From an uncultured Anaerolineae bacterium (GTDB lineage: Bacteria; Chloroflexota; Anaerolineae; JAAYZQ01), in the NCBI GenBank assembly GCA_965370895.1, contig CBDUWJ010000001.1, positions 1 to 33,593 of the forward strand: a DNA stretch of 33,593 nucleotides, given 5' to 3'. The stretch's first letter is position 1, and every line of letters starts with the position of its first letter. The notes under the pieces are model-generated. The model was not told the origin of the DNA. It made no database searches and was given only the letters and a program-made list of their open reading frames with translations. Below, one piece after another: positions 4,563 through 6,326 of this stretch. The position numbers and the translations under genes are program-made.

Positions 4563-6326
4563 CTATGTCGTTGGGACCTGAGCCCCGTTGGTTTCTTCCT
4601 GCGACTCGTCCTTTACCCAGGCGAATTTATGCCTGAGCGCCTTGGGATAGTAGCGCTCCAGGACGTCGTAATCGACCTCCTGCCCCCACTCATAGTAGAC
4701 CCGGGGATCGATGTACGATTTGAGGCTGGTGCCCAGGTTCCACGTGCGCTTCTTGGCAGCAATGGAGGCTTGGGCTTTAATCTTGCCCAGGGCCAGTCGG
4801 GCTTTCCCCAACTGCACTTTGGTCCTCTCCACCCGGCGCTCGGCTACCTCGATCCTTTTGCGGTACCGGGCTCTTGTTTTCCCGCGGCTTGCCGGAGAGG
4901 CAGCTTTCTTCTTCTCGCGGGCTTCCACGCGCAGTGAGCTCAGGGCATCCCGGTAGGTACTGACTCGTTCGCGATAGGTTTTCACCCGGTCTTCCGCCTT
5001 CTGTCGCCGCTCTTTGTACCGCTGGCGGCTGCGGGGCCAGCTAGCGGGGGCTTTTTTGGTGTGGTTGCAGAGTACGGCCGCCTCCAGGTTTGCCAGGTTG
5101 GCGGTCTGCCACTTTTTGTGTTCGGGATCGCTGGCCTGGATTACCGATGCCTTCAGTCTATCTCGCGCGGCGATGGTGGCGTGATGAGTGCGGAACACCT
5201 TGGCCGTCAGCCCGGGTAGGACGTCCGACAGGTAAGCGTTGACGTCGCGGCTGCTAATGTCGGGGAAGATCTGGGGCTTGTCGCGCGCGGGACGAGCCCT
5301 GCCCCCACTTCCCCGCGTGTTGGAGGAACGGGCAGAAGCGAGCAACTCCTCCAGATTTCCCTGGACGGCGTGGGGCAGGCGCAGTTTCTTGTGCCACAGC
5401 ACAGAGTCCTTGCCCAGAAACCGGAACTCGGCGATGCCATCGGGACGCAGTGTGACATGCTCCGGACGCAAGGTAGTGGCCCCCACAGTGTCAGCTTCGT
5501 CGGGGTCTTTTTCGTCGCCAACTCGCAGGCAGAGTCGATCAATCAGGTAGCAGGCTGTGGCAATCTTTTTCTGCTTGGAGTCGGGATCGCATAGATCGCG
5601 CTCGATCTGCGACCGGACCGTGCCTATCTGGGCGTGTAGTTCGTGAGCTCTATCGAACTTACGGGCCTCTCGTTTCTGCTTGATGGGCGCGGTATCGCTC
5701 AACCAGACATACTTGAGCTTGCCCGACAGCTTGTCCTTCCAACGCGCCACCCACAATGACTCGGGTTGCCAGACGATCTGACCCCATGCGCCGGGAGGTC
5801 GAGGGGCGTCGGGACTGAGGTTGAGCGTGATATCCTCCTGCCGGGCACCCTCTTTCCATCGCCCGCGGAGGGGATGCTTGCCTCGCCCCATAAAGATGCC
5901 GCTCGGCTCGACCACATAGTTGGCCACCCCGGTTGGTTGTCCGTTCACGGCGGCAGAGCCATGCTGTTCACGAAGCGCTTCGCGCTGGGCTTTGCGCTCG
6001 GCCGCCAATGCCTTGCGCTCCTCCTTGGTCATCTGCGCCTTCGTCTCCCGTTCCGCCTCGACGATCCGGATGACAGGTCGAAAGTCTACCTCATCCGCTG
6101 TCAGCCTCGAGTCAAGGTCCAGCGCCTGGCCAAAATCGGCCATAAAGTTCCTAACAAAGGTCCGGTCTTGGACATAGGGAGTGCCCTGTTTTTTGGCCCA
6201 GGCCAGGGCCATTTCCTCCTGCTTGGGCGTCAGCACCACTGCCCGCCCCTTGATCGTAATCACCAGGCTCAGGGGGGGCGGCGGATTGGGCACTACAACC
6301 CCGTTGTGGACAAGTTGTTGCAACAT
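4563..6326 (-). CDS. eukaryote-type (long) DNA topoisomerase IB with N-terminal DNA-binding core, coiled-coil linker and C-terminal Tyr domain
   Basis: 587 aa, collinear with human Topo I motifs: [67 protein letters not shown] and KFAWV. The Arg/Lys/Arg/His/Tyr pentad is present. Confidence 0.85.
   Translation of the reverse strand: [587 protein letters not shown]

Follow-up and report, generated by a model that had tools for sequence, protein, structure and literature searches.

A long-form type IB DNA topoisomerase of Asgard-archaeal type in an Anaerolineae genome

Can a topoisomerase of the long, TOP1-like form belong to an ordinary bacterial chromosome, and where would such a gene have come from? 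The question is raised by a gene in positions 1 to 33,593 (forward strand) of contig CBDUWJ010000001.1 (assembly GCA_965370895.1) from an uncultured Anaerolineae bacterium (Chloroflexota), a stretch of DNA that we call the window throughout. The gene (4563..6326, minus strand) encodes a type IB DNA topoisomerase (TopIB) of 587 amino acids (aa). In papers on TopIB evolution the prokaryotic long form is archaeal only and the bacterial enzymes are short and poxvirus-like (PMC4824112, PMC8748870): Dahmane et al. 2016 placed the long form, among prokaryotes, in Thaumarchaeota only, Takahashi et al. 2022 treated bacterial Topo IB as short (PMC8748870), and Asgard genome papers class TopIB as a eukaryotic signature protein. 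Our analysis indicates that the window gene is probably a functional long-form TopIB of an Anaerolineae chromosome, acquired in one ancient transfer from an Asgard-like archaeon and thereafter inherited vertically, with spread to KSB1 and Calditrichota.

The open reading frame (ORF) is a single unbroken run of 587 codons plus stop and carries three Pfam domains, all scoring far over the curated cut-offs. The CAP or DNA-binding clamp module, corresponding to core subdomains I-II, occupies residues 3-209 (5700..6320, on the minus strand like every feature of the gene), where Topoisom_I_N is matched over profile positions 4-213 of 213 (PF02919, E 1.1e-49) and the yeast Top1 N-terminal fragment 1ois also aligns (E 1e-27). 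The catalytic core lies at residues 214-453 (4968..5687; Topoisom_I, PF01028, E 1.8e-60, profile positions 3-226 of 228), and the C-terminal domain at residues 514-574 (4605..4787; Topo_C_assoc, PF14370, E 8.4e-14) bears the active-site motif LGTSLKSY538IDPR. The putative hinge loop between CAP and CAT is placed by alignment at residues 208-212 (5691..5705), directly after K205-Y206, the equivalents of human K425-Y426; the hinge has been defined at human residues 428-432 (PMC8748870), and the predicted local distance difference test (pLDDT) score of our model falls below 50 at 209-213. A surface loop insertion common to bacterial and most Asgard TopIB is evident from segment lengths at residues 329-352 (5271..5342; pLDDT <50 at 334-350). 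No NCBIfam model matched the protein.

As the preliminary description of this DNA had proposed, the protein is collinear with human TOP1 from core subdomain I to the C-terminus. In phmmer searches against solved structures, residues 5-578 aligned with human TOP1 chains at E ~1e-69, and every motif quoted in that description was found in the translation. The best solved-structure match was 6z01 (E 4.8e-134), which is CsTOP1 of Caldiarchaeum subterraneum (PMC8748870). Short TopIB, by contrast, matched the catalytic region only (Deinococcus radiodurans 2f4q, E 3e-7, residues 201-405; variola 2h7f, E 0.009), in agreement with the earlier statement that the short bacterial form lacks clamp and linker, and the profile search suggested there returned all three domains rather than the short catalytic domain only. 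In the window protein core subdomain I comes first (residue 5 = human 220), and the charged domain that precedes it in eukaryotic nuclear TOP1 is absent, as it is from the archaeal enzymes. It combines a CAP domain, a catalytic core, the catalytic pentad and a separate Tyr-bearing C-terminal domain with a linker that is predicted, and is in these respects a long form. It is neither a short poxvirus-like enzyme (~310-350 aa long, linkerless, its N-terminal domain small and of viral type) nor a eukaryotic nuclear TOP1, with its long charged N-terminal domain and its position among eukaryotes.

The residues required for catalysis are all in place. An alignment of 210 sequences (MAFFT), with the human TOP1 numbering validated at 20 known residues, equates human R488/K532/R590/H632/Y723 with R268 (codon 5523..5525), K306 (5409..5411), R379 (5190..5192) and H422 (5061..5063), all four within the catalytic core, and with the active-site tyrosine Y538 (4713..4715). 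The conservation of this pentad, already claimed from the letters alone, extends without exception to 77 prokaryotic homologues (48 bacterial and 29 archaeal), among which the DNA-contact equivalents of human R364, K425, Y426, D533, K587 and T718 are likewise invariant. The residue before the tyrosine, human N722, is Ser537; every bacterial sequence has serine here, as have 28 of the 29 Asgard/Bathyarchaeota locus sequences, and asparagine occupies the position in CsTOP1 and most eukaryotes. Serine is also present there in the chain of 1RRJ, from a study of camptothecin-resistance mutations in human TOP1, which we take to be the N722S camptothecin-resistance mutant. Ser537 suggests that the window TopIB may have a reduced sensitivity to camptothecin. 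The "lips" lysine, human K369, is replaced by Leu153, and CsTOP1 likewise has leucine.

Between the catalytic core and the tyrosine runs the linker (residues 431-525, 4752..5036), a predicted coiled-coil hairpin of two long helices. Its Lys/Arg richness, as first described, was borne out (33 K+R in the 95 residues of the linker proper). As a correction to that description, the span from catalytic His to Tyr measures 116 residues in the window TopIB versus 91 in the human enzyme. AlphaFold2, supplied with 32 sequences, predicts the linker as two 45-residue helices (431-475 and 481-525) with a block pLDDT of ~89-96. With Foldseek the model aligned to CsTOP1 across 573 columns and to closed, linker-containing human TOP1-DNA complexes across 578-590 columns at template-modelling (TM) scores of 0.61-0.65; the variola and D. 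radiodurans enzymes aligned across ~245-270 columns only. The gene is under purifying selection, the ratio of nonsynonymous to synonymous substitution rates (dN/dS) against orthologues being 0.12-0.31.

By homology, duplex DNA would be enclosed by the CAP module (residues 1 to ~207) and the catalytic one, closing via the hinge near 208-212. Tyr538, helped by R268, K306, R379 and H422, would then attack one strand to form a 3'-phosphotyrosyl link, and the cut duplex would swivel about the intact strand, so that supercoils of either sign would be relaxed by a reaction that requires neither ATP nor Mg2+. The linker, a basic coiled coil, may contact downstream DNA and modulate this controlled rotation, and the nick would be resealed at the end of the cycle. 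Such an enzymatic activity, which we infer for the window TopIB from its sequence, has been observed experimentally in CsTOP1, which relaxes supercoils of both signs independently of ATP and Mg2+ via a 3'-phosphotyrosyl intermediate and resists camptothecin (PMC4824112).

The initial label, "eukaryote-type", holds as regards the long form, but the window TopIB is nearer to archaeal enzymes (Asgard 45-52% identity; CsTOP1 46%, BLASTP over 575 aligned positions) than to the human one (30%), and from these comparisons it would be better called an "Asgard-archaeal-type long TopIB". Nor is the long form confined mainly to eukaryotes and Thaumarchaeota, as had been stated, being found also in Aigarchaeota, Bathyarchaeota and Asgard archaea. 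The closest resemblance is to the Asgard enzymes of Loki-, Hermod- and Hodarchaeota type (50-52% identity), which share the three-domain architecture, the length (579-587 aa), the His-to-Tyr span (120 versus 118 residues in bacteria), a loop insertion of ~15 aa and the serine at the N722 position, and which form the sister group of the bacteria in both our trees. They differ in their archaeal hosts and flanking genes, and the bacterial sequences constitute a clade of their own; the Loki-type locus L056, for instance, is flanked by a gene of the PAC2 family. PAC2 proteins occur in archaea and eukaryotes. CsTOP1 (6Z01/6Z03) has the same layout of CAP, hinge, CAT, linker and C-terminal domain and equally lacks the eukaryotic N-terminal domain, but its chain is shorter (539 aa), the His-to-Tyr span in its group is ~68, the 329-352 insertion is absent, the N722 position is Asn, and it branches outside the group of bacteria, Asgard archaea and Bathyarchaeota. 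Human TOP1 (1A36, 1K4T) has an identical pentad, and our model superposes on its closed clamp, linker included; it differs in an extra N-terminal domain of ~200 aa, in its residue 722, which is Asn (Ser537 in the window TopIB), and in its lip pair K369-E497 (Leu153 at the K369 position of the window TopIB). Finally, the short poxvirus-like bacterial enzymes (D. radiodurans 2F4Q/3M4A and rhizobial plasmid copies) have a homologous catalytic domain and the same chemistry, but similarity to them is confined to ~residues 180-490 at 26-30% identity, and they have a different N-terminal domain, without the Topoisom_I_N clamp and the coiled-coil linker (PMC4824112).

That the gene sits in bacterial DNA is indicated by several features. 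GC content is even over the TopIB gene and its flanks, and a GC content at third codon positions (GC3) of 0.73 and a codon-frequency correlation of 0.91 with the other window genes mark it as native. Six genes (the 487-aa and 461-aa ORFs unk487 and unk461, TopIB, a short-chain dehydrogenase (SDR), an M20 peptidase and g1649) are collinear, at 50-77% aa identity, in two loci (L002 and L003) on contigs of 2.15 Mb and 928 kb from Chloroflexota metagenome-assembled genomes (MAGs). On an ENA contig of 7.3 kb, a protein 98% identical to the window TopIB (P0001) is encoded next to these neighbours; no record of the exact sequence was present in the assembly index. About 17 kb from TopIB, a hydantoinase B (HydB) has matches at 84-93% identity, of which those named by NCBI are all "Anaerolineae bacterium". 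Closer to the gene are members of the Spore_YtfJ (7816..8196, minus strand; PF09579, E 1e-10) and DinB_2 (10771..11256; PF12867, E 2e-22) families, both mainly bacterial. The bacterial part of the "bacterial operon context" first proposed is upheld by the synteny, the codon usage and HydB; the operon is not, as no neighbour family recurred in more than 7 of the 48 bacterial loci when 802 neighbouring ORFs from 77 loci were clustered.

The window TopIB is no isolated oddity and is a member of a large Anaerolineae/KSB1/Calditrichota clade. A search of 5.8 billion proteins recovered 7,539 relatives at E ≤ 1e-10, and the best 120 of these are 70-98% identical to it, measure ~530-970 aa (mostly ~580-650) and have the same three domains; those with NCBI names are "DNA topoisomerase I [Anaerolineae bacterium]". 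At the level of clusters, 603 matched at E ≤ 1e-30 in a library of 50%-identity representatives. When one genome per GTDB species was scanned, at least 545 species representatives encoded a relative, and we considered 80 listed loci, bacterial and archaeal. The 50 closest are all bacterial: they carry Anaerolineae or other Chloroflexota labels, including Thermoflexales and Ardenticatenales, besides four KSB1 genomes, one Calditrichota and a few labelled just "bacterium"; one of them is represented by a complete chromosome of 3.2 Mb (OY776562.1), another by a scaffold of 5.2 Mb. This bacterial clade is compact, at ~54% identity or more to the window protein, and is followed among the listed matches by Asgard archaea (45-52%) and then Bathyarchaeota (43-46%).

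A mobile element as the vehicle of the long form was considered and rejected, given that tblastn against 72,556 plasmid records retrieved short bacterial TopIB only (35-47% query cover, 26-30% identity), nothing was found in 50,697 phage records, and a profile scan of IMG/VR yielded 57 long-form genes, mostly in giant-virus bins, that were 27-39% identical and none of them near the bacterial clade. Some IMG/VR contigs of 58-388 kb (L082-L085, loci of 30-40% GC) carry long TopIB genes on large, low-GC "viral" sequences; these are 50-60% identical to unlabelled clades on the prokaryotic side of our tree (P0141; P0167/P0170/P0188; P0193), not to eukaryotic TOP1.

Some members of the bacterial clade are extended at the C-terminus. 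A monophyletic-looking Anaerolineae subgroup of ~735-756 aa (L012, L016, L017, L023, L024, L025, L032, L035, L042, L045, L046 and P0121) shares a conserved domain of ~160 aa after residue ~570, followed by an acidic tail. The domain, with the consensus ..VRTC..DL.AV..LF...LP...EI.ARYLP.L...W.EA...GFA.LGPEW..., is weakly GNAT-acetyltransferase-like (Acetyltransf_1 matched 4 of 11, best E 3.8e-5; PDB profile matches were marginal), and we know of no described TopIB-GNAT fusion. In a KSB1 MAG (L044:4538-6946), an 802-aa TopIB has an in-frame C-terminal NUDIX hydrolase domain (PF00293, E 3.3e-15).

A phylogeny, as recommended in the preliminary description, was built in two ways, and in both trees the bacteria are monophyletic (83-100% bootstrap) within the Asgard TopIB (98-100%). 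The first was a neighbour-joining tree of 201 sequences (506 columns, Kimura distances, 200 bootstraps). It separated eukaryotes from prokaryotes at 98%, with the window TopIB on the prokaryotic side; 50 bacterial sequences were monophyletic at 83%, and they formed a clade at 98% with three Asgard groups, of Loki/Hermod/Hod, Thor and Heimdall type, the last label resting on P0126; of ten unlabelled representatives examined through their cluster names, one yielded an organism name (Heimdallarchaeota). Bathyarchaeota were sister to bacteria plus Asgard (63%), and the CsTOP1 group lay further out. In the second tree, made from an L-INS-i alignment of 129 sequences (526 columns) with BLOSUM62 Scoredist distances, the bacteria were monophyletic at 100%, joined the Loki-type Asgard at 86% and all Asgard at 100%, and the Asgard archaea were monophyletic without the bacteria in 3% only. 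Over both trees the bacteria were nearest to the Loki/Hermod/Hod type with 60-86% bootstrap. The classification as an Asgard-type subclade is drawn from this grouping, obtained by distance methods, together with shared indel and linker characters. The median length of the loop at 328-353 is nearly the same in bacteria (25 aa) and Loki-type enzymes (26), greater in the Thor type (30) and smaller in the Heimdall type (15), versus 9-11 in the enzymes of Bathyarchaeota, Aig/Thaum-like archaea and eukaryotes, and 12 positions are conserved exclusively in bacteria and all three Asgard groups. The His-to-Tyr span is likewise similar in bacteria (118 aa) and Loki-type enzymes (120); it is shorter in eukaryotes (101) and Aig/Thaum-like archaea (68) and longer in Bathyarchaeota (155), the Heimdall type (166) and the Thor type (211). 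The Thor-type span of ~211 (L058, L062, L065, L074, L077) is roughly double that of the human enzyme.

These patterns, together with a preprint that describes Anaerolineae as significant gene-exchange partners of Lokiarchaeota (10.1101/2025.07.24.666526), point to one ancient transfer from an Asgard-like archaeon to an ancestor of the Anaerolineae, which would have been followed by full amelioration and a long period of vertical inheritance, KSB1 and Calditrichota being reached secondarily; the direction and the number of transfers are both inferred from the sequences. If, conversely, the long TopIB had been established in Anaerolineae-like bacteria, Asgard archaea of Loki/Hermod/Hod type must have replaced their ancestral copy with a bacterial one. 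Such a reverse transfer would fit the reciprocal monophyly of the two sister groups, which does not polarise the direction, and also the preprint, in which the exchange is reported whatever its direction. We consider it unlikely, however. An archaeal origin needs fewer events, because the Thor and Heimdall types branch just outside the pair of bacteria and Loki type, within the clade supported at 98-100%, with Bathyarchaeota, Aig/Thaum-like archaea and eukaryotes further out; moreover, the loop insertion is present in the Thor type and, shorter, in the Heimdall type too. Bacterial carriers among the listed matches come from three phyla only, a restriction that argues equally against the long form being ancestral in these bacteria, that is, handed down vertically from a very early ancestor, even the last universal common ancestor, with no archaeal acquisition. 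The breadth of the clade, its host-adapted composition and the purifying selection could be read in favour of such antiquity, to which we nevertheless give little credence, as the bacterial sequences form a compact clade inside Asgard diversity instead of a deep sister group to archaea plus eukaryotes, and published surveys gave only short forms in bacteria (PMC4824112).

Two further explanations would deprive the gene of its host or its function. Contamination or chimerism, with archaeal or eukaryotic DNA in the window or in the homologous MAG contigs, might be suspected from the metagenomic derivation of all carriers among the listed loci and from the absence of the exact protein from the assembly index. 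Homologues are embedded, however, in large sequences that all bear a Chloroflexota or Anaerolineae label (contigs of 0.93, 2.15 and 5.2 Mb, and the complete chromosome of 3.2 Mb), and gene order is conserved with two of those contigs; since TopIB also matches its flanks in GC and codon usage and has the mainly bacterial Spore_YtfJ and DinB_2 genes and the Anaerolineae-type HydB around it, we rejected eukaryotic or viral contamination, as raised in the first description, and hold contamination or chimerism of the locus to be very unlikely, indeed scarcely credible. A decaying or neofunctionalised relic devoid of topoisomerase action, for example a DNA-binding protein only, could be imagined on account of Ser at the N722 position and Leu at that of K369, yet CsTOP1 also has Leu there and is active (PMC4824112), the five catalytic and many DNA-contact residues are invariant across the clade and dN/dS is well under 1, so that such a loss of function appears highly improbable. 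Against an active enzyme of Asgard origin weigh the moderate confidence of the AlphaFold2 model (mean pLDDT 69.5, predicted TM score 0.56), the use of neighbour-joining on corrected distances and not of maximum likelihood with site-heterogeneous models, the moderate support for the Loki-type sister group (60-86%), the many unlabelled tree sequences from outside the loci, which are the majority of these, the fact that a sister relationship by itself leaves the direction of transfer unfixed, and the origin of all bacterial carriers among the 80 loci from metagenome-assembled genomes, with no cultured isolate among them. A more specific version of the Asgard-origin reading, in which the enzyme has been a stable, vertically inherited housekeeping TOP1 swivelase of the Anaerolineae ever since it was acquired, once and long ago, from an Asgard archaeon resembling Lokiarchaeia, and also reached KSB1 and Calditrichota, is offered tentatively, as we judge it slightly less apt to hold than to fail.

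The immediate surroundings of the gene are conserved to differing depths. Upstream lies the 461-aa gene (6391..7776, minus strand), a protein with an NEP motif and no Pfam hit that occurs in the same position in L002 and L003 (73% aa identity), at 68% in L006 and in the same order in L081. It carries the motif "EIWNEPN", which is typical of clan GH-A glycosidases, and has a paralogue of 494 aa at 17155..18639 (minus strand), ~35% identical as judged by shared tblastn targets, whose product gives weak GH42/GH39-like Pfam matches. In the gap that separates the 461-aa gene from TopIB (6352..6392, minus strand), a perfect 7-bp GC-rich hairpin, GGCCAGG-cac-CCTGGCC, directly follows the stop codon of the former without a T-tract, and a purine-rich GAAAGGGAA stands ~12 nt upstream of the TopIB ATG. 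Scanning of 3600-8000 revealed no sigma-70-like promoter and only weak terminator candidates, none within either TopIB intergenic region. Downstream, the short-chain dehydrogenase (3665..4453, minus strand) and the M20 peptidase (2479..3687, minus strand), both recognised by Pfam, are collinear in L002/L003 as a block (2479..4453) at 76-77% aa identity, with synteny limited to the closest relatives.

Elsewhere in the window, the 487-aa ORF (8303..9766, minus strand) has no Pfam match and an atypical composition (GC1 0.76, GC3 0.59, codon correlation 0.62), and is still conserved in L002 and L003 at 48-51% identity. In an 891-aa product (11387..14062, plus strand) the only recognised domains are of the cyclic-nucleotide-binding type, four in number (PF00027, four stretches, E 5e-81). 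GC content drops to ~0.565 at 20100..21400, versus 0.62 window-wide, and no ORF of at least 150 aa occurs within 20477-21390. Rfam and tRNA scans of the window and six related loci detected two tRNAs and nothing else.

The TopIB family and its chemistry are already well known. What appears to be new, compared with the literature searched, is the long form as a large bacterial clade nested in Asgard TopIB; in the open-access papers covered by our searches, none connected TopIB with Chloroflexi/Chloroflexota, Anaerolineae, KSB1 or Calditrichota. Since sequences of the clade are already public under automatic "DNA topoisomerase I" names, what is new is how they are recognised and interpreted, and not the data themselves. 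The existence within Asgard TopIB of a large bacterial clade that selection maintains alters the known distribution of the long form, and is a further, well-resolved example of the flow of information-processing genes between Asgard archaea and the Anaerolineae, their co-residents in sediments. The clade also offers mechanistic studies many new long-form sequences, all with Ser at the position of human N722, and raises the question of the role of a TOP1-type swivelase in a cell that presumably also has gyrase. Were the housekeeping reading true, the long TopIB would be no hallmark of archaea and eukaryotes, and some bacteria would handle supercoiling with a TOP1-type enzyme beside, or partly replacing, the set of Topo IA, gyrase and Topo IV.

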